Part shown: piece by piece, positions 1-31,270 of the stretch | Numbering within the stretch: position 1 is the stretch's first letter | How the letters are laid out: each line of letters begins with the position of its first letter | Assembly: GCA_017528375.1 (NCBI GenBank) | Contig: JAFXOY010000041.1 | Span: 22,480 to 54,479 of the forward strand | Source: Clostridia bacterium | GTDB taxonomy: Bacteria > Bacillota > Clostridia > TANB77 > CAG-508 | Reading direction: 5' to 3' | DNA: 32,000 nucleotides | Made by a program: the position numbers and the translations under genes | The notes under the pieces: model-generated | What the model was told of the DNA's origin: nothing | The model's input: the letters and a program-made list of their open reading frames with translations, nothing else | Database searches by the model: none

Positions 1-2
1 AC

Positions 3-9000: not shown

Positions 9001-9302
9001 TAACAAAAGTATTATTTAATTATGAAATATATGAAGAATTAAATTCAAATATAATTAATACAACTTTGAGATTAATTGAAATTGTAAATGAAGAAAAGGT
9101 TGAAAGTGAATCAGAAAACAAAAAGGAAACAGTTGAGGTAAAGAAAGAAGAAGAAGTGATTGTAGAAAATAAACAAGAAATAAAAGAAGAAGTTAAAGGC
9201 CAGAATCAAGAAGAAATTCAAGATAAAGGTCAAGAAACAACTCAGGAAGAACAACCACAAGTAAAGAAAAAAACAAGCGAAGTAGCTGAAGGTAATTCAT
9301 AA
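3..9302 (+). CDS. Giant secreted/surface multi-domain repeat protein, 5'-partial (continues upstream of window)
   Basis: The frame is open from nt 3: NYNGGSLATGSTETTTYTIEDTVILPTATKTGYNFIGWKEQ... is already a repeat unit, so the ORF-track GTG at 210 is internal. There are many NGG...P.P.(R/K).GY.F.GW units (Listeria-Bacteroides-type repeat). Other segments: two Big_2-like Ig segments (~1660-2150), a LamG/ConA-like segment (RWVDLSG...FNGTSDY...LYIDG...RIYDR, ~2870-3500) and a CBM4/9-like segment (NLIDNGTFE...LYVDNVKVEE, ~5086-5672). Three beta-helix-like modules lie at ~2160-2830, ~6124-7020 and ~8041-9060. The protein ends in an E/K-rich tail with TAA at 9300-9302. Confidence 0.85.
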   Translation, partial: NYNGGSLATGSTETTTYTIEDTVILPTATKTGYNFIGWKEQGADDSTAVTQISGKTGNLNLVAVYTSGDVFYKIHHFVENANDNKYTEEPVEIVTKLKGVTPETNVKTGDVITLNSTQAKAIANTTVEKVTATPNGTNGGAVTVAADSSTEIYVYYKRDKFDLTVTAGSNTKNATGTGKYKWGQTVDISAQYANVTGYEYSNFAWTTTDTSILAGTSESSTTVTMPTANTTVTSTATRAAIQYSISYELNGGSVSTTNPTTYTVETNTITLNNPTKPGYTFAGWTGTGLSTVTKTVKIAKGSTGNRTYTATWTANNYSISYNLDGGSVTGTNPTSYTIESNNITLINPTKAGYTFAGWTGTGLSQATSAVTIAKGSTGNRSYAATWTANTYTVTLDANNGTVTPTSIEVTYNNNYGTLPTPTRTGYTFDGWYYNENKVESTTKVTTASAHTLIAEWTVNTHTLTYDFGINGGQASSSNNSTSTTEQKDYGTKIDLTKSAYKANSAFLGWAETAEATTALSTSAILTMPDANKTLYAIYANMNVSENTETIDLSDAENPTHTKTITVTGSNYGTASVSSSDSATATATITGNTITITALKTGTATITVTSSATDINEDAITKTITVNVIKTPTALTITPATTTLKIDSGFNTTTLNATITPTQTTQYNTITWTSSNPEVATVDQQGNVTAVSLGTTTITASTGKNNVITATATIIVETSNYAEYQGNNIVNYYSTLKDAFDNAVNGNTVKPLNNTVNDASIYNPTLISGKTLTLDLSGKNVILSKNIINNGSLTISDSIATGILESDETVISCNSASSILNITSGTISGNQTVVIEGGTANVTGGTIIGESDGVIVETGATLTLGNNDSTVTSSKDAHPLIEGGVRGVQNSNGTFNFYDGAVKGPVNSSIDGTVTAKPTGYIVRKYHDMVNGTAQETAVLEPGTPSVIITGEATGVTTGLIRHYDGTNNLGNGHSNTPTRWVDLSGHQDAELNGVTFDINGATFNGTSDYATLGEINNIEALTIQVDVKINKIESGEKFLVSNFERGGAGLELIDGKPTFAIYVPGKGYNYCGIDQEIDTAYAHNIAGTYDGTTMSLYIDGVLHNTTTVGGAIGNPTDNTVMAIGTNPKGNGVTSTETGFASMKMYSTRIYDRGITQLEIKQNMNATRIRNYIAPGNASNDANVTLSIIFNEEVTGFTADDITVTNATKGELTGSGANYTLAITDIISSKTLSIKINDKSYTNLAGVEGSSYEVGRYRDVSSPSPTITANPSDEPTNANIITYTIDYNESGVLGLTADEITVTNGTKGTFTQLGYGEYSLEVTTTESGNQTITVPAGACFNSCGNPSLAASKTVVVDKEAPIITPTMESVLNSSFDSWELEGGAYIDNDGTLILPSTGAKAWSPYMYVNGNQWSFTADALSTSISTRYVSENKAAWYMKTLYFDDNLDPTNAPENSRAVGAQGNGSAGKLDLNTWAEAKPWTTEIYASNIKYVRMCLSVDGEYSLATTKYKNPKFVSYTTQTDKKVTIQTAVTDNLSGIVHVRWLSGEKTVANFVTGGTEISGSLDATGNKFTGSFDVTSNGKYTIFAMDNAGNATVNVVEVNLINANSTTDKLKVTFDANGGEVSTSYKFVTYGKTYEELPTPTRTGYTFDGWYTEVSDGNQCTNETSVSRKVNHSLYAHWTANSYKLVKYNGINLIDNGTFEKYTTRSNQGWDGTLNGVEGDPAKAYNVTNWGTGYNSGVANPSAGYHAHMKLVDGNAVLQFKTNEDISGVATNRWLGISQTIDGAKFTAGKTYKITMDVYRVSGSTYVTAGIQHTSNSGSSYAFSSGSGRFIPTTTGQWETLSWTFTLSAEYTYSNGTTTYNPRLYLYGHNSGTAGDLYVDNVKVEEADITDKVYDTTYTSAELPTPTKTGYTFAGWYADANYTTPISTSNKFTESTATFENVNEAGTNAYIYGKWTPNTYTIKFNANYGSASGTMEDQVMTVGVAQNLTANAYRAAAGFIGWNTKADGTGTHYDDMQSVVNLTTTQDEVVDLYGEWGIIAEYDSTGKYVAKYWGIAPAFENAQSGNTLKTLITANLGEYPTNPEGKTLIFDLNGKSIGCPTLYNNGNLTIKDSGTGGVFNMYTYQENGTLTLESGIAAASIEVSGGTYIVNGGQLRGNRIEVKQNGKMIINDVNDTSSVFNVNGELDIYDGKLNSYLYVEDGGTTNMYGGTIHYSGGSETIYLYKGTLNIEGGTIISDSYRAIGVHEASGTIILGKKDNNINLSAPVIQGGQYGINFAVRSPKLFFYDGIVKGGEKAFGNQQGGDITLEDNSSLVYGTEVIDYLSYGGRTYGTAAVQKNATLTVNPNGGTWNGKTTSQTYNQGYGSELNIPVPTRAGYTFTGWTLTGANNVSLANGRLGESLHTDSTFESGTNDIAAYNNINDGTVTVKRTESSYSAVYYGDNPIGDYVVEVQPSSTATPEMGGFKQVTNSAANQKYIHVFIATLPTGYRFCPHMNSVGNGSSVTWLTSREGTGAYAVYAYQVNAGSSGTFRTFGYVSVEESTQPANSYRNNSTFWIAYSDVINITNTKGTKYIFGSSNATLKANWTQTSGQQNIVSQMNSKAGVLRTLSLNNIGLNLQQNADSNDNISDNNAFENISTQEVEPEKEIVEEPKEDLTENVEKDIETETNPTDQNIIALVQINETTYPSLSEAIASANNGDTIKLLENIEQTDDVTIEQGKNIIIDLNGKTLTSSSSNTIANQGTLTIKGTGIIKNETENGNVIYNTGILNIENGIITTAKNGGKGVYNASVNQSGTTATLNMKSGKIVTEGIGSIGIYNIEKAKTLVSGGIIETRNYASKSIYNDSEIEINNAKVIVADYDSIGIYNASNSKACRINKTEIKVEAEEIENYELIKNTNEFKETLNNLKPSYGIYNDSNVEVIIEDATMKIERLKGVGIFNKKDGTVTLGKEDDNVNSATPIIYAISDNTTGIINNEKGKINFYDGRIITTSSIKNMITKVLFNYEIYEELNSNIINTTLRLIEIVNEEKVESESENKKETVEVKKEEEVIVENKQEIKEEVKGQNQEEIQDKGQETTQEEQPQVKKKTSEVAEGNS
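729..1172 (+). repeat. Tandem 222-bp (74-codon) coding repeat, two closely similar copies (729-950, 951-1172), with more diverged units following to ~1620
   Basis: YSISYELNGGSVSTTNPTTYTVETNTITLNNPTKPGYTFAGWTGTGLSTVTKTVKIAKGSTGNRTYTATWTAN versus YSISYNLDGGSVTGTNPTSYTIESNNITLINPTKAGYTFAGWTGTGLSQATSAVTIAKGSTGNRSYAATWTAN. The nucleotide strings are also visibly similar (e.g. ggatggacaggaacagga... in both). Confidence 0.8.
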
Positions 9303-9310
9303 AAACAAAA

Positions 9311-9380
9311 ATGACACAAATGGGGACGGACTCAATTTGTGTCATTTTTGACACATTTTGGGACGGTCTTGTTTTGTTTC
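9311..9380. repeat. Two copies of a 33-bp GC-cored hairpin unit (GGGAC-repeat family, locus A)
   Basis: 9311-9343 is TGACACAAATGGGGACGGACTCAATTTGTGTCA and 9348-9380 is TGACACATTTTGGGACGGTCTTGTTTTGTTTCA. A third copy lies at 18590-18622. Each has TGACACA/TGTGTCA-type arms around a GGGACGG core. Confidence 0.8.
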
Positions 9381-9410
9381 AAATTTGAAACAAAACAAGA
9401 CCGTCCCAAA
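9355..9410. terminator. 56-bp perfect palindrome between convergent genes; probable bidirectional terminator/stabiliser hairpin
   Basis: TTTTGGGACGGTCTTGTTTTGTTTCAAA|TTTGAAACAAAACAAGACCGTCCCAAAA is its own exact reverse complement. It sits between the stop of the giant gene (9302) and the stop of the minus-strand ABC-F gene (9420). It lacks a clean trailing U-run on either strand, so the terminator call rests on position and stem strength. Confidence 0.55.
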
Positions 9411-9419
9411 ACGTTTCAT

Positions 9420-11000
9420 TTATTCAATTCCCAAATATTCATTATATCCAACTTCTCTATCAACCAATCCATCTTTCTTAATATCAATGATTCTATTAGC
9501 AACAGTTTGCATCAATTGATGGTCATGTGAAGTAAAAATCATATTTCCAGGGAACTTAATCATTCCATTATTTAAAGCAGTAATACTTTCCATATCTAAA
9601 TGGTTTGTTGGTTCGTCAAAAGTTAAGAAATTAGCTCCTGAAAGCATAACTTTAGCAAGAACGCATCTTACTTTTTCTCCACCAGAAAGAACTTTAACAT
9701 TCTTTAAAGCTTCTTCGCCAGAGAAAAGCATTCTACCTAAAAAGCTTCTTACATAAGTTTCATCAGGATCTTTTGAATACTTACGTAACCAATCTGTAAT
9801 ACTTTCATCTGTATCGAATAAATAATTGTTATCTTTAGGAAAATAACTACTTGTAATAGTTGTACCCCAAACTAATTCACCTTCATCTGGCTGAAGTTCG
9901 CCAGCAATAATTTGGAATAAAACAGTTTTAGCAATTTCATTATCAGCAAGCAAAGCAATTTTATCACCTTGTTTTACAGTAAATGAAACATTATCTAAAA
10001 GTTTTTCACCATTAACTGTTTTAGAAATATTTTTAACTTGTAAGATATCTTTACCAGGCTCTCTATCAGGTTTAAAGTCAATATATGGATATTTTCTGTT
10101 TGAAGGTTTGATTTCATCTAATTCAATTTTTTCCAAAGATTTCTTTCTAGATGTAGCTTGTTTAGATTTTGAAGCATTAGCACTAAATCTAGCAATAAAT
10201 TCTTGCAATTCCTTAATTTTTTCTTCTTTCTTTTTATTAGATTCTTTTGCTTGTTTTAAAGCTAATTGGCTTGATTCATACCAGAAATCATAGTTTCCAG
10301 GATAAATTTTAATTTTACCAAAGTCAACATCAGCAATATGTGTACAAACTTTGTTTAAGAAATATCTATCATGTGATACAACAATTACAGTATTTTCAAA
10401 ATTAATTAAAAATTCTTCTAACCATGAAATTGTTTTTAAATCTAAATCGTTTGTAGGCTCGTCAAGTAATAAAATATCAGGGTTTCCAAACAATGCTTGA
10501 GCAAGTAAAACTTTAACTTTTTCTTTAGCTTCCAATTCACTCATTAATTTGTAATGATTTTCAGTATCAATTCTTAAATTGTTAAGTAATTGAGCAGCAT
10601 CAGACTCAGCATTCCATCCGTCAAGCTCAGCAAATTTTTCCTCTAATTTAGCAGCCTTCATACCATCTTCTTCAGAAAAATCAGGCTTAGCATAAATTTC
10701 ATTTTTCTCTTTCATAATATTATATAATTCTTGATTTCCCATAATAACTGTATCTAAAACAGAATATTCTTCAAAAGCAAAGTGATCTTGTTTCAAAACA
10801 GATAATCTTTCTGTTTTTTCTTTAGTAACTTCACCTTTACTTGGTTCTAACTCTCCTGAAAGAACCTTTAAGAATGTTGATTTGCCAGCACCATTAGCAC
10901 CAATAATTCCATAACAACATCCTTTATTAAATTTAATATTTACATCTTCAAATAAAGTTCTTTTTCCGAACCTTACTGTTACACCGATTGCATTTAACAT
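9420..11000 (-). CDS. ABC-F family ATPase (soluble tandem-NBD, YbiT/YkpA-like translation factor type)
   Basis: I moved the start from ORF-track 11045 to ATG 11000-10998 (MLNAIGVTV...) because GGAGG (11012-11008) lies 7 nt upstream. NBD1 has Walker A GANGAGKST and Walker B ILLLDEPTNDLD. NBD2 has signature LSGGEKVR, Walker B FLTFDEPTNHLD and H-loop FTSHD. The inter-domain linker FIARFSANASKSKQATSRKK is typical of ABC-F proteins. There are no TM segments. Confidence 0.9.
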   Translation of the reverse strand: MLNAIGVTVRFGKRTLFEDVNIKFNKGCCYGIIGANGAGKSTFLKVLSGELEPSKGEVTKEKTERLSVLKQDHFAFEEYSVLDTVIMGNQELYNIMKEKNEIYAKPDFSEEDGMKAAKLEEKFAELDGWNAESDAAQLLNNLRIDTENHYKLMSELEAKEKVKVLLAQALFGNPDILLLDEPTNDLDLKTISWLEEFLINFENTVIVVSHDRYFLNKVCTHIADVDFGKIKIYPGNYDFWYESSQLALKQAKESNKKKEEKIKELQEFIARFSANASKSKQATSRKKSLEKIELDEIKPSNRKYPYIDFKPDREPGKDILQVKNISKTVNGEKLLDNVSFTVKQGDKIALLADNEIAKTVLFQIIAGELQPDEGELVWGTTITSSYFPKDNNYLFDTDESITDWLRKYSKDPDETYVRSFLGRMLFSGEEALKNVKVLSGGEKVRCVLAKVMLSGANFLTFDEPTNHLDMESITALNNGMIKFPGNMIFTSHDHQLMQTVANRIIDIKKDGLVDREVGYNEYLGIE

Positions 11001-11012
11001 TTTTGTTCCTCC

Positions 11013-11130
11013 TTGCACAATTGGGGACGCGTCCCGACTGTGCAAAATGCACAGTCAGGGACACGTCAGCAATCTAACCCGTCCCTAGCTGTGCAAAATG
11101 CACAGCGGGGACGCGTCCCCAGTTGTGCAA
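11013..11130. repeat. GC-rich composite palindromic element (GGGAC-repeat family, locus B): two ~50-bp inverted arms around an 18-bp spacer
   Basis: Left arm 11013-11062: TTGCACAATTGGGGACGCGTCCCGACTGTGCAAAATGCACAGTCAGGGAC. The reverse complement of the right arm (11081-11130) is TTGCACAACTGGGGACGCGTCCCCGCTGTGCATTTTGCACAGCTAGGGAC. I count about 41 of 50 matching positions. Each arm contains the sub-palindromes GGGGACGCGTCCC(C) and CTGTGCAAAATGCACAG. Confidence 0.85.
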
Positions 11131-11131
11131 T

Positions 11132-11160
11132 ATTATACATTAGAATTTGCAATTTGTCCA
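11132..11160 (-). promoter_or_regulatory. Candidate sigma-A promoter for the ABC-F gene
   Basis: On the minus strand, TGGACA (11160-11155) is followed by a 17-nt spacer and TATAAT (11137-11132). The predicted leader of ~125 nt would contain the locus B palindromic element. Confidence 0.4.
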
Positions 11161-11211
11161 CTATAAAACTTGCATATAAAGAAAAATTTTGAAAAATCTG
11201 CCAATTTTGTA

Positions 11212-11240
11212 TTGACATAGTCAAAATATTATGGTATTAT
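11212..11240 (+). promoter_or_regulatory. Promoter of tRNA-Arg (extended -10 type)
   Basis: TTGACA (11212-11217), a 17-nt spacer, then TGg-TATTAT (TG at 11232-11233, -10 at 11235-11240). The tRNA 5' end lies 13 nt downstream of the -10. Confidence 0.6.
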
Positions 11241-11252
11241 AATCGTTGTCAT

Positions 11253-11329
11253 GGGTCAGTAGCTCAGTTGGATAGAGCATCGGCCTTCTAAGCCGAGGGT
11301 CGGGGGTTCGAATCCCTCCTGGCTCACCA
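11253..11329 (+). tRNA. tRNA-Arg: tRNA-Arg, anticodon TCT (reads AGA), encoded CCA end
   Basis: The 77-nt cloverleaf folds by hand. Acceptor GGGTCAG/CTGGCTC has two G-U pairs. The D arm is TAGCTCAGTTGGATAGAGC. The anticodon stem is TCGGC/GCCGA with loop CT-TCT-AA. The T arm is GGGGGTTCGAATCCCTC. Discriminator A is followed by CCA at 11327-11329. Confidence 0.93.
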
Positions 11330-11364
11330 TAAAGTTATACGTTTTCGTATAACTTTATTTTTTT
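11330..11364 (+). terminator. Rho-independent terminator after tRNA-Arg
   Basis: The stem AAAGTTATACG (11331-11341) pairs perfectly over 11 bp with CGTATAACTTT (11346-11356), with loop TTTT. A run of 7 T follows at 11358-11364. Confidence 0.75.
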
Positions 11365-11391
11365 GACAAAAATACAATTAGATGATATTAT
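11363..11391 (+). promoter_or_regulatory. Promoter of first small membrane-protein gene (extended -10 type)
   Basis: TTGACA (11363-11368), a 17-nt spacer, then TGa-TATTAT (TG at 11383-11384, -10 at 11386-11391). Confidence 0.55.
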
Positions 11392-11443
11392 GTAACTGTG
11401 AAAACATTCACACCTTTCCACTTTGCTAAAAGGGGGAATATAT

Positions 11444-12028
11444 ATGTTGTTACTAATAGTTTTGATGGCCTTCGTTTGCGTTACAATCAAAGTTTTAGGC
11501 ATTCCTATAGTATTAGATTTCGCACAATTCGTAATATTTGTTTTTATTGGACTTATTATTTCTGGAACAATAAATCTAATTTTTAAACGGAAAACCAAAC
11601 AAATTATGATGTCACGAAAAGATATAGAGCTTAAAGATGGTAATAACTACGAAGATGATTTCCTATTTATTTTTACGGCAACAGATATACTAAACGGTTT
11701 AGCAATGCTTTCATGGCTGCTGTATGGAATATTCGCATGCATTTTTATGTATAGTGTTTCCATATTTGCAGAATACAAACCAATATGCATTTTGATACCA
11801 GCACTTTTGGTTATTGTAATTGAACTAATATTATTTATTAGCTGCTATTACTCAACCAAGAAAAATCTTGAACATACTATATCATTAATGATGTATATTG
11901 AAGCTTCGTGCGTCAATAAGTTAATTTTATTAGCTGCAATATTCGGATTTGTAGTACTCTGGTTTAGCATTATATTCATATTGGTTTGTCTGGTAATAAT
12001 CAGCTTTGGAAGCAAACTCGGTGGATAA
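11444..12028 (+). CDS. Small polytopic membrane protein (about 6 predicted TM helices), function unknown
   Basis: I chose ATG 11444 (MLLLIVLMAF...) over the ORF-track TTG at 11423 because GGGGGA (11432-11437) precedes it. The protein is almost entirely hydrophobic helices, with one charged loop (KRKTKQIMMSRKDIELKDGNNYEDD). Confidence 0.75.
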   Translation: MLLLIVLMAFVCVTIKVLGIPIVLDFAQFVIFVFIGLIISGTINLIFKRKTKQIMMSRKDIELKDGNNYEDDFLFIFTATDILNGLAMLSWLLYGIFACIFMYSVSIFAEYKPICILIPALLVIVIELILFISCYYSTKKNLEHTISLMMYIEASCVNKLILLAAIFGFVVLWFSIIFILVCLVIISFGSKLGG

Positions 12029-12065
12029 CAAAAGGCTCTGTAATAGAGCCTTTTGTTTATTTTTG
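12027..12065 (+). terminator. Rho-independent terminator
   Basis: There is a 13-bp perfect stem (12027-12039 AACAAAAGGCTCT with 12045-12057 AGAGCCTTTTGTT) and a loop GTAAT. TATTTTTG follows. Confidence 0.8.
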
Positions 12066-12087
12066 AATGATGATTGGAGACAATTTA

Positions 12088-12123
12088 GTACGCGTCCCAA
12101 AATTGTCCCATCCCTAACCCGCC
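12088..12123. repeat. Degenerate copy of the GGGAC-repeat family (locus C)
   Basis: The sequence is GTACGCGTCCCAAAATTGTCCCATCCCTAACCCGCC. It carries ACGCGTCCC and GTCCCA cores, and CTAACCCG resembles TCTAACCCGTCCC in locus B. It is a GC-rich patch in an AT-rich spacer. Confidence 0.45.
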
Positions 12124-12128
12124 AAACC

Positions 12129-12157
12129 TTGACAAAATCAGCAAAAAATGATATAAT
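12129..12157 (+). promoter_or_regulatory. Consensus sigma-A promoter of second small membrane-protein gene
   Basis: TTGACA (12129-12134), a 17-nt spacer, then TGa-TATAAT (TG at 12149-12150, -10 at 12152-12157). All elements match consensus. Confidence 0.65.
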
Positions 12158-12210
12158 AACGCCATAATAAACGTTAAATCACCATAACCTTTAGTAAGGG
12201 AGTGAAATGT

Positions 12211-12750
12211 ATGCTAGCAATGTTGTTCATTGTAATAGTTTCGTACCTACTGAAATTGGCACATTTGGAAATATCCATAAAGTTCTTACCTGCAATTATG
12301 ATGATAGGAATATTATCTGTTCTATTGTTAATAGTTTCTTGTATAACACATAAATCATTAATTACTTCAAAAGAAGAAAATGGAGAGTATTTATGTGCAT
12401 TGGAAGAACCAGGAGTGATAGTATTTGGAGTTATTTATTCATGTATAGCAACTGCTTTAATGTGTATAATGCTTGCATTCATGAATAGCGAAATTTCAAT
12501 GATTATTCCAATAACAATATCAATGATAATTATGGCAATAATGGATATTATAGGTATAGCAGTATTTTTCCATTCATATACATATGATCTAAAAGAATCT
12601 ATAAAAGATTCATTAGTTCATCAAATGGAATTAGTACAATACGCTCTACTTTTAATGATCGCAGTTGCCTTTGCAGTAAGGTTTACATTACTTGGAGGAT
12701 TAATACTGATGTATGTAATCATCAGAATTGCAATACTTTTCCGGAGGTAG
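12211..12750 (+). CDS. Small polytopic membrane protein, distant paralog of 11444-12028
   Basis: I prefer ATG 12211 (MLAMLFIV...) to GTG 12202 because AAGGGAG (12196-12202) sits 8 nt upstream. It has the same size class and helix/loop layout as the preceding gene (2 TM, a charged loop with KEENGEY versus KDGNNYEDD, then 3-4 TM). The stop is TAG. Confidence 0.75.
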   Translation: MLAMLFIVIVSYLLKLAHLEISIKFLPAIMMIGILSVLLLIVSCITHKSLITSKEENGEYLCALEEPGVIVFGVIYSCIATALMCIMLAFMNSEISMIIPITISMIIMAIMDIIGIAVFFHSYTYDLKESIKDSLVHQMELVQYALLLMIAVAFAVRFTLLGGLILMYVIIRIAILFRR

Positions 12751-12779
12751 TCAATTTCGAAACAAAAGCCCAAACCAAA

Positions 12780-12816
12780 ATGGTGATGATTTAACAATTA
12801 TCACCATATTTTTATT
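12780..12816 (+). terminator. Weak candidate terminator
   Basis: An 8-bp stem ATGGTGAT (12780-12787) pairs with ATCACCAT (12800-12807) across a 12-nt loop, followed by ATTTTTATT. The long loop makes this uncertain. Confidence 0.3.
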
Positions 12817-13043
12817 GAAAAAAATATGTGAAAATAATAAATGAATTTAATAAATTTTGTTAAAATTTTGTAACAAAACGATAAAACGTTGAAGCCCTAA
12901 GGAAAAACGCAAAAAACTGAAGATAATATAAATAAGATTTTCTAAAACTTTTATTTCCGTAAGTTTTTGGAAAAAGTGCAAAAAAATAAAATATTACATT
13001 TATATTAAATTTAGTAAAATGTGTATTTTCAAGGCTTTTTTTG

Positions 13044-13072
13044 TTGAAAAAACATATTATTTAAATTATAAT
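13044..13072 (+). promoter_or_regulatory. Candidate promoter of the T4SS-like operon
   Basis: TTGAAA (13044-13049), a 17-nt spacer, then TATAAT (13067-13072), about 37 nt upstream of ATG 13109. It lies at the end of a 358-bp AT-rich intergenic region. Confidence 0.55.
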
Positions 13073-13108
13073 ATAAGAAGATTGTATAAAGAATGTGAGG
13101 AGAAAATT

Positions 13109-13690
13109 ATGAGAGAAAAGAGATTAAGAAAAATTACTAAAACAATATTTGCTGTTGTAGCAATTTTAATTGCTTTCCAAGTAACAAGCACAAAAGTTTT
13201 TGCTGCAAATGCTAAAACAATTCAAAACGCAGAAAACACAACAGACAAAGCAATAGTAAGACTTGCAGACAACGAGCAAAATGAAGGACAATCAGAAAAG
13301 AAAGCACTAAAAAAATCTGAAAGAAAAGGCGTTGGAGATATTTTAAAAGCAGCAACAACATGGATAAACGGAGCTGAAAAAACTGAAAACACAGAAGTTG
13401 ATGATTTTGTAAACCAATTCGTAGGAATAGGACAATTACTTGTAATAGCAGGTGTTATCGTTATATTAATAACAATTGGAATCACAGGAATTAGATGGAT
13501 TACAGCTTCTCCAGACAAACAAGCTAAATTAAAAGAACAACTAATTGGTCTAGTAATTGCAACTGTTGTAATATTTGGTGCAGTTGGAATTTGGAACTTA
13601 GTAAGAGGAATTATGATGAAAGTTGAAGACGATTATTTAACAACAGGTAACTCAGAAACAATCATAGTTGCAGACAATCAAATTAAATAA
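13109..13690 (+). CDS. TrbC/VirB2-like pilin-type small membrane protein (signal peptide plus two C-terminal TM helices)
   Basis: I chose ATG 13109 (MREKRLRKITK...), with GAGGAG 6 nt upstream, over ORF-track 13019, which would include the promoter. A signal peptide ends ...STKVFA|ANAK. Next come a hydrophilic E/K-rich segment and a hairpin of two TM helices (IGQLLVIAGVIVILITIGITGI ... LIGLVIATVVIFGAVGIWNLV) joined by a short basic loop. It is the first gene of the T4SS-like operon. Confidence 0.6.
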   Translation: MREKRLRKITKTIFAVVAILIAFQVTSTKVFAANAKTIQNAENTTDKAIVRLADNEQNEGQSEKKALKKSERKGVGDILKAATTWINGAEKTENTEVDDFVNQFVGIGQLLVIAGVIVILITIGITGIRWITASPDKQAKLKEQLIGLVIATVVIFGAVGIWNLVRGIMMKVEDDYLTTGNSETIIVADNQIK

Positions 13691-13738
13691 AAATCGAAAA
13701 GTATAGATTCAAAAATTTATCACAAAGGAGGAATAATA

Positions 13739-14074
13739 ATGGCTACACATTACATCCCAAAAGACTTAAGAGGTGAAGGAAGAATATTATTAATATTCTC
13801 AACTAAGTCATTAATAACAACAGCAATATTTGGTGGTATTGGAGTTGTATTTTACTTAATATTCAGCGCTTTAGGATTAAAAATTGTTGGAGTAATTGTC
13901 TTAGCACTGTTAGCATTATTAGGGTATGCTTTTGGAACCTTCAAAATGCCAAAAATAACAGGACTTAGATTTACTAAAAATATTGAAGGAGATTCAATGG
14001 ATGAAATATTTTTAAGATATATAAAATTTAGATCAAACAAGAAGATTTACTCATACACAAAGGAGGATAAATAA
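13739..14074 (+). CDS. PrgI family / VirB3-like small membrane protein
   Basis: AAGGAGG lies 8 nt upstream. The N-terminus MATHYIPKDLRGEGRILLIFSTKSL is followed by two TM helices and a basic tail FLRYIKFRSNKKIYSY. This matches the PrgI-family pattern as I remember it. It sits just upstream of the VirB4 region, as in Gram-positive T4SSs. Confidence 0.75.
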   Translation: MATHYIPKDLRGEGRILLIFSTKSLITTAIFGGIGVVFYLIFSALGLKIVGVIVLALLALLGYAFGTFKMPKITGLRFTKNIEGDSMDEIFLRYIKFRSNKKIYSYTKEDK

Positions 14075-15358
14075 ATGGGAAACGGATTACAAGGTATAAT
14101 TTATTTTATAATTGCAATATGTGTTATTCTTGCCATAGCATTAGCAATAGTTCTAGCATATATCTGGTACAAAGATAATCGTAAAAAGCAAGAATTAAAT
14201 GATACACAAAAATCAGATAAAAATAAATCAAATTCACCTACAAAGCTACAAGGAATTGAATCAATGTCTAAGTTCTTAGCCTTTGATGATATTGTAGATA
14301 GCATGATTGTTAGAAAAAATAGAACTCAATATGTAATGGTAATTCAATGTAAAGGTGTTAACTTCGATTTATTAGGGGAAGAAGAAAAAATGGCTGTAGA
14401 AAGTGGATTTACTCAATTCTTAAATACATTAAGATTTCCAGTACAGTTATATGTTCAATCAAGAAGCTTAAACTTAAAAGATAGCATAGATAAATATCAA
14501 GCAAGAGTTAATGAAGTTAAAGACGAAATAGTAAAATTAGATAATCAAATAAAAAGAGAACAAGCAAATGGAAGATTAGACTTAGTAAGAAGATTACAAT
14601 TTGACAGAAGAAGAAAAATGAACATTTTAGAATATGGAGCTGATATTACAAACTATGTAGCAAGATTAAGTCAAAACAGAAATGTTTTACAACAAAATAC
14701 TTATGTGGCAGTTGCTTACTACACAAATGAATTCGGTGGACAAATTGCAAACTACTCAAAAGAAGAAATTGATAACATAGCGTTTTCTGAGTTATATACA
14801 AGAGCACAAACATTAATTAGAGCTTTATCTGCATCAGGAGTTACAGGTAAGGTTATGAATTCAGAAGAGTTAGCAGAACTTCTTTATGTTGCATATAACA
14901 GAGATGATTCTGAATTAATAAGTGTTAAAAAAGCAATCGAGTCTCAATATGATAGCTTATACCACACAGCTAAAGATGTATTAGAAAAACAAAAAGAAAT
15001 GATTGAAGAAAAAGTAGATAAAGAAGCAATTGATTTAACATCACAAAGCATTGCAAAAGCTGATAGAATTTTAAAATTAAGACAAGAAAACAAAGAAGAA
15101 ATTCGTAGAAGAGCAATGGCTTATGTTGAAAGATATAAAGGTGAAATGACTAGTGACCTTTATGAAGAAACAAAAAGACAAGTAGAAAAAGCAAAAATAG
15201 GTGAAGAACCAAGAAAAGAAACCAAAATTACTAAGCCAACTAAAGAAGTAGAAAGAAAAACAGTAGCTAAAAAGAGACCTACAGCAGTACAAGCAGAGTC
15301 AGAAATAAGAACAGAACAACCAAGAGTACGACGCAGAAGACCAACAGTAACGGAATAA
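14075..15358 (+). CDS. Bitopic membrane protein with a long charged/coiled-coil C-terminus; T4SS-associated, function unknown
   Basis: The ATG directly follows the upstream TAA, and the AGGAGG lies inside the upstream gene end. It has one N-terminal TM (IIYFIIAICVILAIALAIVLAYIW). It has no Walker A. The tail is K/E/R-rich and ends RTEQPRVRRRRPTVTE. Confidence 0.7.
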   Translation: MGNGLQGIIYFIIAICVILAIALAIVLAYIWYKDNRKKQELNDTQKSDKNKSNSPTKLQGIESMSKFLAFDDIVDSMIVRKNRTQYVMVIQCKGVNFDLLGEEEKMAVESGFTQFLNTLRFPVQLYVQSRSLNLKDSIDKYQARVNEVKDEIVKLDNQIKREQANGRLDLVRRLQFDRRRKMNILEYGADITNYVARLSQNRNVLQQNTYVAVAYYTNEFGGQIANYSKEEIDNIAFSELYTRAQTLIRALSASGVTGKVMNSEELAELLYVAYNRDDSELISVKKAIESQYDSLYHTAKDVLEKQKEMIEEKVDKEAIDLTSQSIAKADRILKLRQENKEEIRRRAMAYVERYKGEMTSDLYEETKRQVEKAKIGEEPRKETKITKPTKEVERKTVAKKRPTAVQAESEIRTEQPRVRRRRPTVTE

Positions 15359-15396
15359 ATTGTTCTAGAAAGACAAAATGAGAGGAGAAAAGGTCG

Positions 15397-17358
15397 ATGA
15401 AATTATTTAATTTAAAACAAAATACCAAAGAAATCGAGAAAAAAGTTGAAGAAGAGAAAAGTGTTTTGAAAAGAAACAGAAAAACTCTTAAAGATATAAT
15501 TTCACCAGCAGGTGTTGATGCAACACATACAAATCATTTGGAAATTGTTGCAAGTACAACAAAATATGCACGTAGTGTAATAATTTCCACAATGCCAAGA
15601 ATGTGTACTTTCCCAGAGTTTCTAAGAAGCATGTATACATTTGGAGATGCAAATATTTCAGTTTTTATTAAACCAATTACTGAAAATACATCCCAAACAG
15701 ACTTAAACAGAAGAATCAATGAAATTGAATCTGAAAGAATTGTAGCAGCAGAAAGAGGAAACATCAACAGGGAAAGAATTCTAGCCCAAAAAAGAATGGA
15801 AGCAGAAGAGTTAAGAGACTCAATTGCAGGTGGATTTAATAAATTATATGAATCTTCAGTAATATGTACATTATTTGCATATAACTTGGAAGATCTAGAT
15901 AAACAAACTGAGTTATTATCAACAGAAATGTCAAAAACATTAATAGGAATTAAACCAGCATGGGCAATGCAAGAAGATGCATTTAATTCAAATATGCCTT
16001 TTGTAGATAATAGAATAAACAAAGAGCATACATTTGACCGTAACTCAATGGCAACAGTATTCCCATTCTTTAATTCAGACATAGGACATGAGAACGGAAT
16101 TCCACTTGGATTTAATCGTCAAACAGGATTACCAATTCTTTATGATAACTTTAACAAAGAATTAAATAACTATAATATGGTTGTTTTCGGTAAATCTGGT
16201 GCTGGTAAATCAGTTGCAATTAAAACATTAACAGCTCGTTCATCAGTTCTTATGGGAATTGAAAGTTTAGCACTAGACGCCGAAGGTGAATACGGAGTTG
16301 TTGCTGAAGCACTAGGTGGAGTAAATGTTGTAATTAGTCCAAATTCAAACACAATTATAAATTTATTTGATATAGAGCCAGAACTTGTAAAAGATGAAAT
16401 TACTGGAAAAGAAAGAGCAATTTTAAATGTAGAAAATAAAGTTGAAGATGTTACTCAAGCACTGGTAACAATGGCAAGAGGAAGCACAAGAAGTTCAGAA
16501 GTAAATGAGCTTACAAAACAAATTATTGCTGAAACAGTAAAAGAAGAATATGAAGCATATCAAATTACAAGTGATGTAAATAGTATATATGTTAAGAAAA
16601 ATGAAAGAGTAATGGAAGACGATTACTTAGGAAGACAAAGAAAAGAAATGCCAACAATTGGTTCATGGTATAAACGTTTGATTAGAAAAGCAAAAGCAAA
16701 CGAAAATCCTGACTACAGATTCCATTACAGTTATTTAGCAAAAGTTATGAGACAATATGTAAGAGCTTTAGGTGGACAAATGGCATATTTCGATGGTCAA
16801 TCAACCTTCGAATTATTAGAAGATATTCCATTTATTAACTTAGATATATCTCAACTTGAAGAAAGATTTGCAAGACCACTTGCACAACAAATATTACTTT
16901 CTTGGGTATGGGAAAAATACGTAAAGAAAAATAGTGAAGATAAAGAAAAAGCAGCAAGAAAAAGGGTTCTAGTCGATGAAGCATGGATGCTTTTACCTTA
17001 CCCAGAAGCTGTAGATTTCTTAAACACAATGGCAAGACGTGCCAGAAAAAGAAATGTTTCTCTAGCAGTTATTTCACAAAAATTCCAAGACTTCTATGAG
17101 AGACCAGAAGTACAAGTAGTTTTAACATCATCAGATACAAAACTATTCTTAGCACAAGATAAATCAGAAATAGAATACATAAGAGAAGTATTTAAATTAA
17201 GTGAAGGAGAAGCAAACTTCTTAACAACATGTACAAGAGGTGAAGGTTTGTTAAAAGTAGGTGAAGATACGGCAATTATTTCAATAAATCCTACTAAAAA
17301 AGAATTTGAATTCATAGAAACAAACTTAAATGAATTAGCAAAAAGAAGACAGGAGTAA
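15397..17358 (+). CDS. virB4: VirB4-family T4SS ATPase (TraE/PrgJ/TrsE-like)
   Basis: Walker A is VVFGKSGAGKSVAIK (GKSGAGKS at nt 16189-16212). It is followed by LALDAEGEYGVVAEALGG...IINLFDIEP. Walker B is RVLVDEAWMLL (~16966-16998), and ARRARKRNVSLAVISQKFQDF follows. The N-terminal segment IISPAGVD...HLEI...YARSVIISTMPRMCTFPEFLRSMY...ISVFIKP fits the VirB4 N-domain pattern. Confidence 0.88.
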   Translation: MKLFNLKQNTKEIEKKVEEEKSVLKRNRKTLKDIISPAGVDATHTNHLEIVASTTKYARSVIISTMPRMCTFPEFLRSMYTFGDANISVFIKPITENTSQTDLNRRINEIESERIVAAERGNINRERILAQKRMEAEELRDSIAGGFNKLYESSVICTLFAYNLEDLDKQTELLSTEMSKTLIGIKPAWAMQEDAFNSNMPFVDNRINKEHTFDRNSMATVFPFFNSDIGHENGIPLGFNRQTGLPILYDNFNKELNNYNMVVFGKSGAGKSVAIKTLTARSSVLMGIESLALDAEGEYGVVAEALGGVNVVISPNSNTIINLFDIEPELVKDEITGKERAILNVENKVEDVTQALVTMARGSTRSSEVNELTKQIIAETVKEEYEAYQITSDVNSIYVKKNERVMEDDYLGRQRKEMPTIGSWYKRLIRKAKANENPDYRFHYSYLAKVMRQYVRALGGQMAYFDGQSTFELLEDIPFINLDISQLEERFARPLAQQILLSWVWEKYVKKNSEDKEKAARKRVLVDEAWMLLPYPEAVDFLNTMARRARKRNVSLAVISQKFQDFYERPEVQVVLTSSDTKLFLAQDKSEIEYIREVFKLSEGEANFLTTCTRGEGLLKVGEDTAIISINPTKKEFEFIETNLNELAKRRQE

Positions 17359-17362
17359 TTAA

Positions 17363-18511
17363 ATGAAGAAATTTATAACTATAACAGCAATTGTTATATT
17401 ATTACTTAATTTCATATCAATACGCTCGTATGCTGCAACAGACGAAAATGGTTTGTTCGATTACACTAAAGGGTTCGATTTATCTCCTCAGCAGTCTGGA
17501 GGGATAACGCTTGTTACAGATGAAGGACAAAAAGTAAGCTCTTCACTAAATGGAGCAACAAAGACAATTGGATTAGCGTTTAAAGCAATTGTGAATACAT
17601 TAACTGTATTTCCACATGCAATTAACCAAGTGCTAGACGTATTTGTTGAAGTTACAACAGAAGATGAAGTAAACCATTTTACCATATATGACACAGTAAT
17701 GGGACATTATGATTTGTTTGACATCGATTACCTAAACATACCAGACAAATTAACAGATGATTCAACACTTATAGAAGAAATAAAGTATTATGTAATTAGA
17801 GCATATAGAACAACAAGAAACTTAAGTATTGCAATAAGCTTATTTGTTTTAATATACATTGGAATAAGAATGGCAATATCAACTGTTGCAAGTGATAAGG
17901 CAAAATATAAGAACATGTTAGTACATTGGACAACTTCGCTAGTATTAGTTTTCCTTATACACTTTATAGTTATAATAATTTCGTTAGTGCTACAGGTGGG
18001 ACTTGGGATTGTAGAAAATATTGCAAAAGCATGGGAAGTAAGCAATTTAGAAGAACAGCTATTTAGTGGTTCAGTGTTATATACAAGTACATTATCTACT
18101 GGAATTGGAATAGCATCATTCTCATCAGCAGTAATAATTTGGGTATTAGCATATTATCAGGTAAAATTCTTTTTATATTACTTAAGAAGAACTTTGGAAG
18201 TAAACTTTTTAATAGTGGTTTCACCACTAGTTACAATTACATACTCAATTGACAAATCCGGAGACAACAAAGCACAAGCATTTGAACAATTTATGAAAAT
18301 GCTGATATCAAAATCAGTAATACAACTATTACATGCAATAGTATATGTTGTATTTATAGCAACAGCCGGTGTAATTGCAGTAAGACATCCACTATTAGCA
18401 ATACTATTCTTTGCAGCACTAGCAAGAGTAGAAAAGATAGCAACAAGAGTATTCTCAGTAGATGAACAAGGATTCCAAAAAGTAAAAGTACCATTTATAA
18501 AAGGAGCATAA
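17363..18511 (+). CDS. VirB6/TrbL-like polytopic membrane protein, paralog 1 (382 aa)
   Basis: It has a signal peptide (…ISIRSYA|ATDENG), multiple TM helices, and a position immediately after VirB4. It shares a ~225-aa core with 25096-27051 and with the middle of 20327-25078 (RNLSIAISLFVLIYIGIRMAISTVASDKAKYKNML...; FLIVVSPLVTITYSIDKSGDNKAQAF...). Confidence 0.6.
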   Translation: MKKFITITAIVILLLNFISIRSYAATDENGLFDYTKGFDLSPQQSGGITLVTDEGQKVSSSLNGATKTIGLAFKAIVNTLTVFPHAINQVLDVFVEVTTEDEVNHFTIYDTVMGHYDLFDIDYLNIPDKLTDDSTLIEEIKYYVIRAYRTTRNLSIAISLFVLIYIGIRMAISTVASDKAKYKNMLVHWTTSLVLVFLIHFIVIIISLVLQVGLGIVENIAKAWEVSNLEEQLFSGSVLYTSTLSTGIGIASFSSAVIIWVLAYYQVKFFLYYLRRTLEVNFLIVVSPLVTITYSIDKSGDNKAQAFEQFMKMLISKSVIQLLHAIVYVVFIATAGVIAVRHPLLAILFFAALARVEKIATRVFSVDEQGFQKVKVPFIKGA

Positions 18512-18646
18512 TGGGGACGTGCACAATTGGGGACGCGTCCCGGCTGTGCAAAATGCACAGCTAGGGACGGGTCACAAACTTGACAAACTTGACACATTTG
18601 GGGACGGTCTTGTTTTGTGTCAAAAATGACACATTCAGGGACAGAC
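18511..18646. repeat. GC-rich palindromic element cluster (GGGAC-repeat family, locus D) inside the T4SS-like operon
   Basis: 18520-18568, TGCACAATTGGGGACGCGTCCCGGCTGTGCAAAATGCACAGCTAGGGAC, matches 11014-11062 at 46 of 49 positions in the same orientation. A tandem 9-mer ACAAACTTG x2 lies at 18574-18591. The 33-bp unit TGACACATTTGGGGACGGTCTTGTTTTGTGTCA lies at 18590-18622. A partial unit TGACACATTCAGGGACAGAC lies at 18627-18646. Confidence 0.85.
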
Positions 18647-18679
18647 ATAACTAAAAAAGTAAGGAGATGATAATTAAAA

Positions 18680-19801
18680 ATGATAATAAATGAAATAAAA
18701 AAACATAAAAAAATAATTATTATTTTAGTATCTATTTTATTATTATTTTTAATTACCATTATACTTATTAAAATAGATCAAAAGAAAAAATATGGAAAAT
18801 TTATAGAAGAAGAAACAGCCAGAGTAAAGCAATACACAGCACTTACAGATTTTCAATCAATACAGGAAGTAGCATTATATTTAGACTGTAAATTGGAAAA
18901 GCAAGAAAAATCGCAAAAAGAAAATGTTGACTATGATATTTACATGACTCTTCCGATTGATGTTGCAGACGGACATGCAAAACACAAAACATTTTTAGAA
19001 AAATTAATTCAATATTCTGCATATGCATTAAAATACAAAAACTTCATTATTATAGATAAATCAAAAAACATTAATATAGCTGTTGTATGTAATGAAAAAG
19101 AACAAGAAATAGAAACATACTATATTAATAATGTTGAAAACTACTTTACAACAAAACAAAATGAAGAAAACATTGATAGCTTTAAAACAACAAGTGAAAT
19201 TGAATTAAATGTTACATCAAATGAATTGCAACAAATAATAAGTTTAGATTGGCGATCAAGTAATTTACAAGTAGGAACAGCAGAATCAACTTTCAAAGGT
19301 TATGATATTTATTTTGATGAAGGATATCAAATAAAAAAAGTAGCAGGAAAAGTATTTAACATAGTATTCACTGATAAATATCAAAATAATGTAGTTAACA
19401 ATTTAAATGTAAATTCTACAATAGAAGAAATAAAAAATTCTTTAGGGAAACCTCAATTTGAAAGTGGAAATTTAATTGGATATAAATCAAAAGATTTCTA
19501 TGTATTTTTCTATAATAATCAAATTTCAATATACAGAGTTGATTATTATGACACTGAAAAATTTGCAGAAATAATAGATAAGTATAAAGAAAGCATAGAT
19601 ACAAAATCTTTTGTAGATGAAGTTAAAAGTAATTGGACAGATTATGATATTTCAGATTATGGAACAAACTACATAAAAATTCAATACACACTAAAGGGAA
19701 TAACAATAAAATATGATTCAACAGAAAAACAGGGAATAGTAGTATATAACAATTACAATGGTAAATTACTACGGAAATCTAACTTTAGAAGAAGTTGTTA
19801 A
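18680..19801 (+). CDS. Bitopic membrane-anchored protein (N-terminal TM, ~340-aa external domain), function unknown
   Basis: AAGGAG (18661-18666) lies upstream, and the nearer ATG 18667 runs into a stop after 8 codons. The TM is IIIILVSILLLFLITIILI. I recognise no motifs. The last ~13 codons (GKLLRKSNFRRSC, including a CGG codon) look out of frame; see the frameshift finding. Confidence 0.65.
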   Translation: MIINEIKKHKKIIIILVSILLLFLITIILIKIDQKKKYGKFIEEETARVKQYTALTDFQSIQEVALYLDCKLEKQEKSQKENVDYDIYMTLPIDVADGHAKHKTFLEKLIQYSAYALKYKNFIIIDKSKNINIAVVCNEKEQEIETYYINNVENYFTTKQNEENIDSFKTTSEIELNVTSNELQQIISLDWRSSNLQVGTAESTFKGYDIYFDEGYQIKKVAGKVFNIVFTDKYQNNVVNNLNVNSTIEEIKNSLGKPQFESGNLIGYKSKDFYVFFYNNQISIYRVDYYDTEKFAEIIDKYKESIDTKSFVDEVKSNWTDYDISDYGTNYIKIQYTLKGITIKYDSTEKQGIVVYNNYNGKLLRKSNFRRSC

Positions 19802-20234
19802 TACAAAACAAACATTACCAAATAATATATTTATTGAAAATGAAGATTTAGTATTTGAAACTGAAAAATCTAGAGTAAATACTTTAGAAGATACAACTAA
19901 CAATGGAAATTATCCATCAACAGTAATATTAAACACAAGCAAAAAGTTTAAAGTAGCAAAACAGTTATTGCAAGGAAGTGACAACATGTACCAAATAAGA
20001 TTTATATCAATAAATAATGAACTTCCAAATACAGAATTAAGGGAAGTAATAAGCAGAGGAATTTGGTATGATGATTACAATTTTATATTTGCAGTAAAAG
20101 AAAGAGGAATATTTATTTATAATGTTCAAACACAAAGTTATAGAACTTTAAAAACAGGTAATGGAGAATTCATGATACACAATATAGAAAATAATAAATT
20201 ATATTATGATAATGATTCATTAGAAATCCAGTAA
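19758..20234 (+). CDS. Hypothetical protein, or the C-terminal part of the preceding gene after a +1 frame change
   Basis: It overlaps the upstream ORF by 44 nt and has no RBS before ATG 19758. Its frame is open only from 19743. Codon usage looks genuine from the first codons onward (MVNYYGNLTLEEVVNTKQ...). Confidence 0.5.
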   Translation: MVNYYGNLTLEEVVNTKQTLPNNIFIENEDLVFETEKSRVNTLEDTTNNGNYPSTVILNTSKKFKVAKQLLQGSDNMYQIRFISINNELPNTELREVISRGIWYDDYNFIFAVKERGIFIYNVQTQSYRTLKTGNGEFMIHNIENNKLYYDNDSLEIQ

Positions 20235-20326
20235 AACAATAACGAAATGAAAACAGTTTAATATCAGTTGCAGACTGTAAAAAATCGATGTGATTCGAAA
20301 ATAAAAAAAGAAGGGAGGGCTGCAAA

Positions 20327-25078: not shown

Positions 25079-25095
25079 AAGGAAGTAGGTGTCAA

Positions 25096-27051: not shown

Positions 27052-27082
27052 TAAAAAAGTAACAGAAAGGCAGGTGATATAA

Positions 27083-31249: not shown

Positions 31250-31270
31250 TATTATTTTTGAGGTGTCATT

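Follow-up and report, generated by a model that had tools for sequence, protein, structure and literature searches.

GC-rich intergenic palindromes of a low-GC Clostridia genome: a repeat family probably derived from the ends of a Y1 transposase cassette

What are the GC-rich palindromes that fill some of the gene spacers in an otherwise AT-rich clostridial genome? The question is raised by a 32,000-nucleotide (nt) stretch of Clostridia bacterium DNA (GenBank assembly GCA_017528375.1, contig JAFXOY010000041.1, positions 22,480 to 54,479), hereafter the window, in which four intergenic loci, A (~9312-9418), B (11014-11129), C (12076-12109) and D (18513-18648), are built on a common GGGAC core (Table 1). 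Our analysis confirms that these palindromes form a real, well-defined repeat family. The four loci are probably non-autonomous elements, similar to repetitive extragenic palindromes (REPs) and their hairpin-forming doublets (REPINs), derived from the ends of a cassette that encodes a Y1 tyrosine transposase.

All the sequences quoted in a preliminary description of the window were found where it had placed them, and its estimate of about 17 GGGAC cores on both strands of the four loci was exactly 17 on recount. Its four loci are all real, although some of its boundaries had to be moved, with locus A ending at 9418 instead of 9410 and the unit of locus C lying at 12076-12109 on the minus strand. 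The loci have 38-58% GC compared to 30.7% for the window as a whole, and a repeat finder recovered all three reported copies of a 33-nt hairpin unit (family D7), as well as a 55-nt repeat common to 11014 and 18520 (D20) and long inverted repeats I1-I4. The hexamer GGGACG occurs 15 times in the window versus 0.82 +/- 0.89 times in dinucleotide-preserving shuffles (shuffle maximum of 4). Intergenic DNA makes up 1,488 nt (4.65%) of the window, and 14 of these 15 occurrences touch it (odds ratio 287, Fisher p = 3e-18). When single strands were folded and compared with shuffled sequences, loci A (z -11.5; minimum free energy of -46.4 kcal/mol for 9305-9425), B (z -12.4) and D (z -6.5) were strongly structured, but locus C was only weakly so (z -2.0). 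We regard locus C as a genuine single unit because the same species has a near-copy of it at a distance of 10 kb (L154 17366-17396); another is found at L154 14411-14440.

Comparison of the window with related sequences revealed a polar half-element of ~55-60 nt that is common to all subfamilies. It consists, in order, of a stem sequence S1 (6-7 nt), TT(T), the core GGGGACG, a linker of 8-9 nt, the complement of S1 (S1'), a loop of 3-5 A/T, a second S1, 3-4 nt, a second core GGGAC(A/G) and a short tail. S1 reads TGCACA(R) (type 1), TGACACA (type 2), TGAAACA, TGAGACT, TTTTAAA, GCCAAT or GGACAAT depending on the subfamily, and GAACAAT, TGTCAC, GAGCAA, GGGATTT or GAGTCA in other species. The GGGGAC(G/A) cores are invariant while S1 varies by subfamily and species. 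The S1/S1'/S1 pattern fits 115 halves with at least 7 distinct S1 sequences. Independently of this parsing, direct GGGAC cores are most often 34 nt apart (70 cases), with further peaks at 32 (18), 33 (11) and 37 nt (6), and 54% of the cores lie within a stem of at least 6 bp compared to 10% of control hexamers. The position-wise consensus around 338 cores is TTGGGGACG(C/G), in which GTAG is absent. Stem complementarity was tabulated directly because the MAFFT alignment across subfamilies had the stems out of register, and a blind search for covarying column pairs had low sensitivity. Across 62 copies of type 1, the inner hairpin has three variable pairs, and these were Watson-Crick in 97 of 186 cases versus 71.3 +/- 5.3 after shuffling (maximum of 90 in 2000 shuffles). 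A strand test on the same hairpin, based on G-T versus A-C mismatches, gave two common non-Watson-Crick positions that favour opposite strands.

The halves occur solo, as inverted pairs whose GGGACA ends point at one another 4 to ~500 nt apart, as 32-nt and 65-69-nt palindromes, or as tandem arrays of ~24-34-nt units followed by an inverted array, with tandem arrays reaching five units. Locus B is a complete 116-nt composite with a type-1 half on either side of a 4-nt spacer, and locus D is a tandem of two unlike half-elements. As defined for REPINs, both 9349-9418 and 11014-11129 consist of inverted units around a short spacer that can form a long hairpin, and many more such composites are present in related DNA. 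Two further observations concern this architecture. At L018 700-1090, a GC-richer palindrome of ~400 nt, which could form one very long hairpin and has no open reading frame (ORF), lies between inverted type-1 halves. The type-1 junction TGTGCA-TTTT-GCACA (window 11040-11050) holds TTTTGCACA, which fits the DnaA-box consensus TTWTNCACA as quoted in PMC6006769; this fit may be a coincidence because other subfamilies do not match the consensus.

A gene for a REP-associated tyrosine transposase (RAYT), which the preliminary description had suggested looking for, has a counterpart in relatives, outside the window: a RAYT-like Y1 gene with inverted copies of the repeat as its flanks. When 20 repeat-flanked genes were scanned against Pfam, the sole non-housekeeping case among the bracketed ORFs was a 263-amino-acid (aa) Y1_Tnp protein (L054 3376-2585; 46 bits versus a cut-off of 23). 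Its best NCBIfam family is REP_Tyr_transpos NF047646 (60.3 bits, E 1.9e-16), and because this score is below the 80-bit equivalog cut-off, the protein is a relative and not an equivalog of the proteobacterial RAYTs. Its homologues are 259-269 aa long, and the HUH motif (N59, H60, H62), the residues G95/H96/F98/R101 and the tyrosine motif (Y119, I120, N123, P124) are invariant in 20 of them. The best PDB match of its AlphaFold model (pLDDT 86) in Foldseek is 4ER8 chain A, the E. coli RAYT-REP complex (E 2e-6, target TM 0.72, rmsd 3.0), followed by the ISDra2 and IS608 transposases. In this model residues 140-260 are all helical; Q243 and R246 of this C-terminal region are conserved, and its single, weak Pfam match is HTH_19 (E 0.02). 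Searches by tblastn with approximate IS608 TnpA and E. coli RAYT queries gave nothing significant.

The L054 gene lies between inverted type-1 halves whose GGGACAYATC ends point toward the gene, and the outer ends of this cassette touch an RNase J-like gene at its stop codon on one side and radA at its ribosome-binding site on the other. Orthologues at 66, 64, 52 and 43% identity occur in the same RNase J-like/Y1/radA/disA order, which extends the arrangement to five species. Inverted copies of the repeat flank the Y1 gene in 8 of 8 loci examined (L054, L141, L145, L148, L150, L152, L084 and L087); beside the orthologues these are GGGGAC-core halves with a species-specific S1. All flanks of Y1 genes that were seen are of the type-1 (TGCACA) subfamily or species-specific equivalents. 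In L164 and L166 the repeat flanks were seen in part, with the contigs ending inside the repeat. A 37%-identical homologue in the isolate Butyrivibrio sp. NC2002 is located at another site and has like flanks. A second lineage, ~35% identical to the L054 protein and with HUH and YIHxNP motifs, lies directly downstream of the ABC-F gene (L084 3770-4861 and L087 7590-8500), flanked by GGGGCCGG plus AGGGACAGG in L084 and by GGGGACAGACC in L087. Because locus A has the same position after ABC-F, it may be a remnant of a second-lineage cassette. The outer units of the cassettes read GGGGACG[CGT], some copies having three G and not four, and the gene-proximal units read GGGGACAC (L150 and L145 right), GGGGACAG (L087), GAGGGACAGG (L141), CGGGACACGT (L145 left) and TTGGGACATATC or TTGGGACACATC (L054). 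Many homologues are alone on contigs of ~1.0-1.1 kb, which is what assemblies that break within the flanking repeats would produce.

One such contig provides the link to the window. The downstream terminal repeat of L164 (1,106 nt, carrying homologue P0002) is identical to window 11074-11129 at 54 of 56 positions, and the first 11 nt of this contig, GGACACGTCAG, are the inner end of the left half of locus B. Because both matches fall in the halves of locus B, this locus can be read as a gene-less cassette; by sequence resemblance, it looks like the L164 cassette minus promoter and gene, that is, a non-autonomous derivative. The type-1 half of locus D agrees with the L164 repeat, read as its reverse complement, at 49 of 55 positions. 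Contig L162, from an assembly of the same species as the window, begins at window position 18545, within this half.

The repeats are dispersed, as the preliminary description had anticipated when it favoured a genome-wide element resembling a REP or a miniature inverted-repeat transposable element (MITE) over a single-locus regulatory site. The species of the window is present in metagenome assemblies at 99.8-99.97% identity (e.g., ENA ERZ27256869 k141_2125882, 305 kb), and the next 10 kb past the window end contain four more loci, including near-copies of the locus C unit and of the locus A composite (9312-9418, whole near-copy at L154 12153-12260). This amounts to 8 loci in 42 kb, or about one per 5 kb. 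When one genome per species was scanned with a degenerate type-1 pattern, 36 loci were found in the metagenome-assembled genome (MAG) CAMEHU01, labelled as uncultured Lachnospiraceae, and three in two rabbit-gut Clostridia MAGs; the remaining matches, isolated in GC-rich genomes, look like chance. CAMEHU01 has 80 repeat clusters and 65 distinct GGGACGCGTCC type-1 palindromes in 283 kb, and a single copy of the Y1 gene within these 283 kb. The window is not from CAMEHU01; the repeats alone match between them, at ~80%. Of 87 clusters in the low-GC loci and the window, 85 are intergenic, although coding sequence makes up ~85% of this DNA. Their neighbours, where flanks were checked, are housekeeping genes (ThrRS, AspRS, a TrpRS/TyrRS-type synthetase, MutS, SufB, RNase Y, LepA, acetate kinase, FBA, PFL and SpoVAD). 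The type-1 palindrome had no match in viral contigs, and the only match in a plasmid collection was to the conserved ABC-F gene.

Occupancy of individual sites varies among relatives. Most of 43 low-GC metagenome loci with an ABC-F gene at 70-89% identity have no GGGACG at all, and most relatives with an 82-89% identical ABC-F do not have the repeat family. Around radA, whether the radA-disA, disA-PPIase and DivIVA-methyltransferase spacers carry an element depends on the species, some of these sites being filled and others empty or decayed. Even between strains that are 99.5-99.98% identical, L150 (5785-5870) and L151 differ by one 34-nt unit in an array upstream of the RAYT-like gene. Several minor observations were made in the relatives. 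At L145 13382-13400, the TGA stop codon of disA runs straight into the element (ctgTGAGCAATTGGGGACG), whereas the empty sites of L141 and L148 end in TAA, so the element may supply or overlap the disA stop codon. L141 differs from L142 by an 87-nt insertion (18100-18187) between rplB and rpsS, which is another palindrome (GATAGCCGT...ACGGATATC) lacking the GGGAC core and may be another small mobile element. Past ABC-F, L070 (7590-7660) has a GGGGTCGG-cored hairpin close to a GGGACGG unit of CAMEHU01, and an unrelated inverted repeat, based on GTGAGAACGCTTTTTTTTCGTGCA, is found in L073, L074 and L076.

The placement of the repeats bears on a first alternative, namely that they are RNA hairpins selected by the host at mRNA ends, for termination or protection from exonucleases, with selection driving their spread and the Y1 gene being incidental. 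Sixty-one of the 87 clusters lie between co-directional genes and would be transcribed. The outer ends of type-1 elements abut a gene boundary in over half of the cases; of 68 such ends, 19 are located 0-4 nt from a stop codon and 20 no more than 9 nt from the complement of a ribosome-binding site. The unit at 9312-9344 is a stem plus T run after a long ORF, in a few relatives, single units that share the design but not the stems lie directly past the ABC-F stop codon in the sense orientation, and REPs are reported to stabilise upstream mRNA (PMC3733652). In contrast, a terminator scan flagged none of the four loci and most units are without a T tract. Locus A lies between convergent genes, B between divergent genes and C and D between co-directional genes; locus D is inside a type IV secretion system (T4SS) operon, where termination would be harmful. 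The units are found in both orientations relative to transcription, the same sites are empty in close relatives, and a search of Rfam gave only the tRNA at the gathering threshold and, at relaxed thresholds, generic hairpin (miRNA) models far below their cut-offs. RNA function by itself would also leave the arrays of up to five units and the association with the Y1 gene in all eight loci unexplained. We therefore consider such an origin unlikely. As a possible secondary use RNA function is more convincing than as a rival origin, and from their placement elements at gene boundaries may plausibly act as mRNA-end hairpins as well.

The second alternative, that the repeats are MITEs moved by a DDE transposase, as in the pneumococcal RUP/IS630 case, or ends of multi-copy IS200/IS605 elements, is very unlikely in our assessment. 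The composites do have ~55-nt terminal inverted repeats that start with TG and end with CA, and their many copies are patchy across species. But no flanking direct duplication was seen at 15 complete composites inspected by eye, and no DDE transposase was found between or beside the halves in the 20 flanked genes tested, the Y1 gene being the only transposase-like gene bounded by halves. This gene is present once in the 283 kb of CAMEHU01, and its orthologues keep a single chromosomal position even where identity has dropped to 43%; a single copy and a fixed position would be the behaviour of a RAYT and not of an insertion sequence. Least probable of all are operators of a global DNA-binding regulator or nucleoid protein that reads the GGGGACGCGTCCCC palindrome or TGCACA-N3-GGGGACG half-sites, for although perfect 14-bp and 32-bp palindromes lie just upstream of ribosome-binding sites, a 16-nt half-site has 9 matches versus 1.4 expected and the type-1 elements contain the DnaA-box-like sequence noted above, the neighbouring genes share no function, many copies are 3' of genes or between convergent genes, the S1 half-site changes among subfamilies of one genome with GGGGACG alone constant, copy number and arrays vary, and the sites are missing altogether in most relatives. 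A CRISPR array, an integron attC site, a T4SS oriT and parS were also considered and dropped in view of the lack of unique spacers, the housekeeping flanks on many contigs and the inconstant stem.

Derivation of the repeats from the Y1-transposase cassette can be put in the form of a model. The window loci would be lineage-specific, non-autonomous REP/REPIN-like palindromes of low-GC gut Clostridia, and their source would be the terminal inverted repeats of a chromosomal cassette encoding a RAYT-like Y1 (HUH) tyrosine transposase. The full cassette would consist of two inverted halves around the transposase gene; with the gene gone and the halves joined, it would yield composites of 116-136 nt such as window 11014-11129, and the other forms would be solo halves, single units and tandem arrays. 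In single-stranded DNA, the S1/S1' arms would fold into hairpins that display GGGGACG, and the enzyme would recognise hairpin plus core, by analogy with the E. coli RAYT acting on hairpin plus GTAG. Cutting and rejoining through the catalytic tyrosine would then copy or move the elements without target-site duplication, and those that survive would be where a compact genome tolerates them, directly past stop codons or before ribosome-binding sites. We infer mobilisation by the Y1 enzyme from what is described for the RAYTs of E. coli, Stenotrophomonas and Marinomonas (PMC8266576) and for IS200/IS605; catalysis on the repeats, the strand and sites that would be cut, and a role for the host are to be read in the same conditional sense.

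Several observations weigh against this model. The transposase gene was found neither in the window nor on a contig proven to be from the same species, and L164 is tied to the window by repeat identity alone. No Y1 gene was found for the TGACACA, TTTTAAA and GCCAAT subfamilies, whose dependence on the same enzyme is an assumption. The enzyme gave no match in a sequence search of the PDB, in addition to its sub-threshold NF047646 score. The count of one Y1 gene covers 283 kb of one genome, and a second lineage is present at another site. The hairpin that the enzyme would read is ambiguous: single units carry the core within the S1/S1' loop, whereas halves and dimers have it at the base of a longer hairpin. 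Finally, no transposition event was observed, and the four loci showed no gain or loss among up to 8 strains of the same species (3-8 per locus, 99.8-99.97% identical).

Among published systems, the repeats and their enzyme fit most closely the TIRYT/TIRtron class (TnpA-Y1 subclass 2.1), and not the classical GTAG REPs. TIRtrons are RAYT-like genes (TIRYTs) with long inverted repeats, many of which share GGGGWSAS and some of which are members of moderately abundant families (Di Nocera et al. 2013, PMC3733652). TIRYTs have been equated with TnpA-Y1 subclass 2.1, whose members are long proteins with a C-terminal helix-turn-helix (HTH) domain of the Bac_DnaA_C, HTH_23 or HTH_28 type, and no REP-like sequences were found beside the genes of this subclass (Quentin et al. 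2018, PMC6006769). The clostridial enzyme is a RAYT-like Y1/HUH protein that exceeds the classical RAYTs in length and has a helical C-terminal extension, which may be HTH-like; its gene lies within long inverted repeats that are also found in a dispersed family with dimers and clusters, and the gene-proximal unit GGGGACAC or GGGGACAG fits GGGG[AT][CG]A[CG]. There are also differences. Published cases were described in Acidobacteria, Stenotrophomonas and other non-Firmicutes, and neither PMC3733652 (supplements included) nor PMC6006769 mentions Firmicutes or Clostridia. The published families are moderately abundant, whereas the clostridial repeats are dense (a locus every 4-5 kb or so), modular and divided into several stem subfamilies, and their outer unit GGGGACG has G instead of A at position 7.

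The resemblance to REP/REPIN-RAYT systems, such as E. coli REP/BIME and the Pseudomonas REPINs, is found in the short intergenic palindromes, mostly inverted doublets, in the conserved short tag beside a variable stem, in the lack of target-site duplication, in the repeat-flanked Y1 gene at one chromosomal position across species, and in the best fold match being 4ER8. Cleavage by the E. coli RAYT takes place on single-stranded REPs and depends on the GTAG tag (PMC8266576). In contrast, the clostridial tag is GGGGACG, the units are polar and of greater size, their two cores lying 32-37 nt from each other, the C-terminal domain has no counterpart in the E. coli RAYT, the host is a clostridial lineage with 28-31% GC, and the enzyme scores under the NCBIfam RAYT cut-off. 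RAYT group 1 does occur in Clostridia, but abundant repeats were tied to groups 2 and 3 only (Bertels et al. 2017, PMC5581495).

Two superfamilies of REPs, one tagged with GTAG and one with CGTC, have been distinguished (Di Nocera et al. 2013, PMC3733652). On the opposite strand the clostridial core reads CGTCCCC, which places CGTC beside a hairpin in every unit, and head-to-head dimers join GACG and CGTC. However, CGTC-1 to CGTC-4 have an unpaired CGTC, an 8-9 bp stem starting from A/T pairs, a loop of 4-5 nt and a CCA tail (PMC3733652), and the clostridial stems start with C-G and have 11-16 bp, a loop of 3-4 nt and no CCA tail, so that they do not qualify. CGTC REPs are moreover reported without an associated transposase, whereas the clostridial repeats have one. 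A full-text literature search for the repeat sequences, together with the REP, RAYT and TIRYT papers, gave no description of this repeat family or of a clostridial TIRYT. The BOX element of Streptococcus pneumoniae is another modular intergenic repeat of a low-GC Gram-positive organism, with inverted terminal modules and variable tandem internal units. Its likeness to the clostridial repeats would lie in this modular design, and BOX is not known to have a cognate transposase.

A broader reading would be that gut Clostridia maintain a long-lived, vertically inherited partnership of the REPIN-RAYT type, in which a TIRYT enzyme reads the new tag GGGGACG, the stems have diversified and some elements have been co-opted as punctuation at stop codons and ribosome-binding sites. 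We offer this tentatively and hold it to be doubtful as a whole. Because the GGGGACG tag contains CGTC, a TIRYT-class enzyme might also be the missing mobiliser of the orphan CGTC REPs in other phyla. To our knowledge, work on REP/REPIN-RAYT systems has so far been almost entirely proteobacterial. The clostridial host, a dense and diversified set of repeats and the GGGGACG tag are mainly of specialist interest. Dense repeats, a syntenic and apparently single-copy enzyme gene and an invariant tag make a clean system for studying how Y1 enzymes read a tag plus hairpin, and the lineage is suited to asking whether repeat-transposase partnerships persist in Gram-positive gut bacteria. On the practical side, the repeats break metagenome assemblies, often leaving the enzyme gene isolated on a contig of ~1.1 kb, and they would mislead the prediction of promoters, terminators and small RNAs in uncultured genomes.

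Table 1. Coordinates of the repeat elements of the window and of two adjacent genes
Feature	Position	Strand	Remarks
Single unit, S1 = TGACACA (locus A)	9312..9344	plus	10-bp stem around loop GGGGACGGACTCA, then T run; 9 nt past the surface-protein stop codon; loop recurs inside a different stem in L100; near-identical counterpart in L141 at 2873
Inverted unit pair (locus A)	9349..9418	9349-9381 plus, 9386-9418 minus	Palindrome with 35-nt arms, I4, 94% complementary; outer end 1 nt from the ABC-F stop codon, convergent genes on either side
ABC-F ATPase gene	9420..11003	minus	527-aa call (526 aa elsewhere); locus A at 3' end, locus B at 5' end
Type-1 half-element, left (locus B)	11014..11069	plus	TGCACAATT-GGGGACG-CGTCCCGAC-TGTGCA-AAA-TGCACAGTCA-GGGACACGTCAG; D20, I2; outer end abuts the ABC-F ribosome-binding site
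Type-1 half-element, right, inverted (locus B)	11074..11129	minus	I2; 81% complementary to the left half
tRNA-Arg(TCT) gene	11253..11329	plus	Context
Single unit, GGACAAT subfamily (locus C)	12076..12109	minus	Minus strand: GGGACAATTTT-GGGACG-CGTAC-TAAATTGTCTCC; weakly structured
Orphan GGGGACG core (locus D)	18513..18519	plus	1 nt past the stop codon of the upstream T4SS gene
Type-1 half-element in the T4SS operon (locus D)	18520..18574	plus	91% identical to 11014-11068; D20, I1
Type-2 half-element (locus D)	18590..18648	plus	TGACACA-TTT-GGGGACG-GTCTTGTTT-TGTGTCA-AAAA-TGACACA-TTCA-GGGACAGACAT; D7, I3; oriented as the type-1 half before it

Upstream of locus A, the window is occupied by the ORF of a giant surface protein with Listeria-Bacteroides repeats (210-9302), which extends upstream of the window. 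In the same species this protein is called at 4,728 aa, of which the window covers the C-terminal 3,030 residues; it has five Listeria-Bacteroides repeat domains together with Big_2/Big_12 domains, and its region (window 1-9302) contains internal DNA repeats of 53 and 222 nt. The tRNA-Arg(TCT) gene is followed by two small membrane ORFs and then, from 13019 to the window end, by a Gram-positive T4SS operon (13019-31861, continued in L153/L154 past the window end) that codes for pilin-like proteins, PrgI, a TraC-like protein, a VirB4-like ATPase and a 1583-aa M23 peptidase. This operon starts ~1.7 kb downstream of the tRNA gene and may represent an integrated conjugative element.

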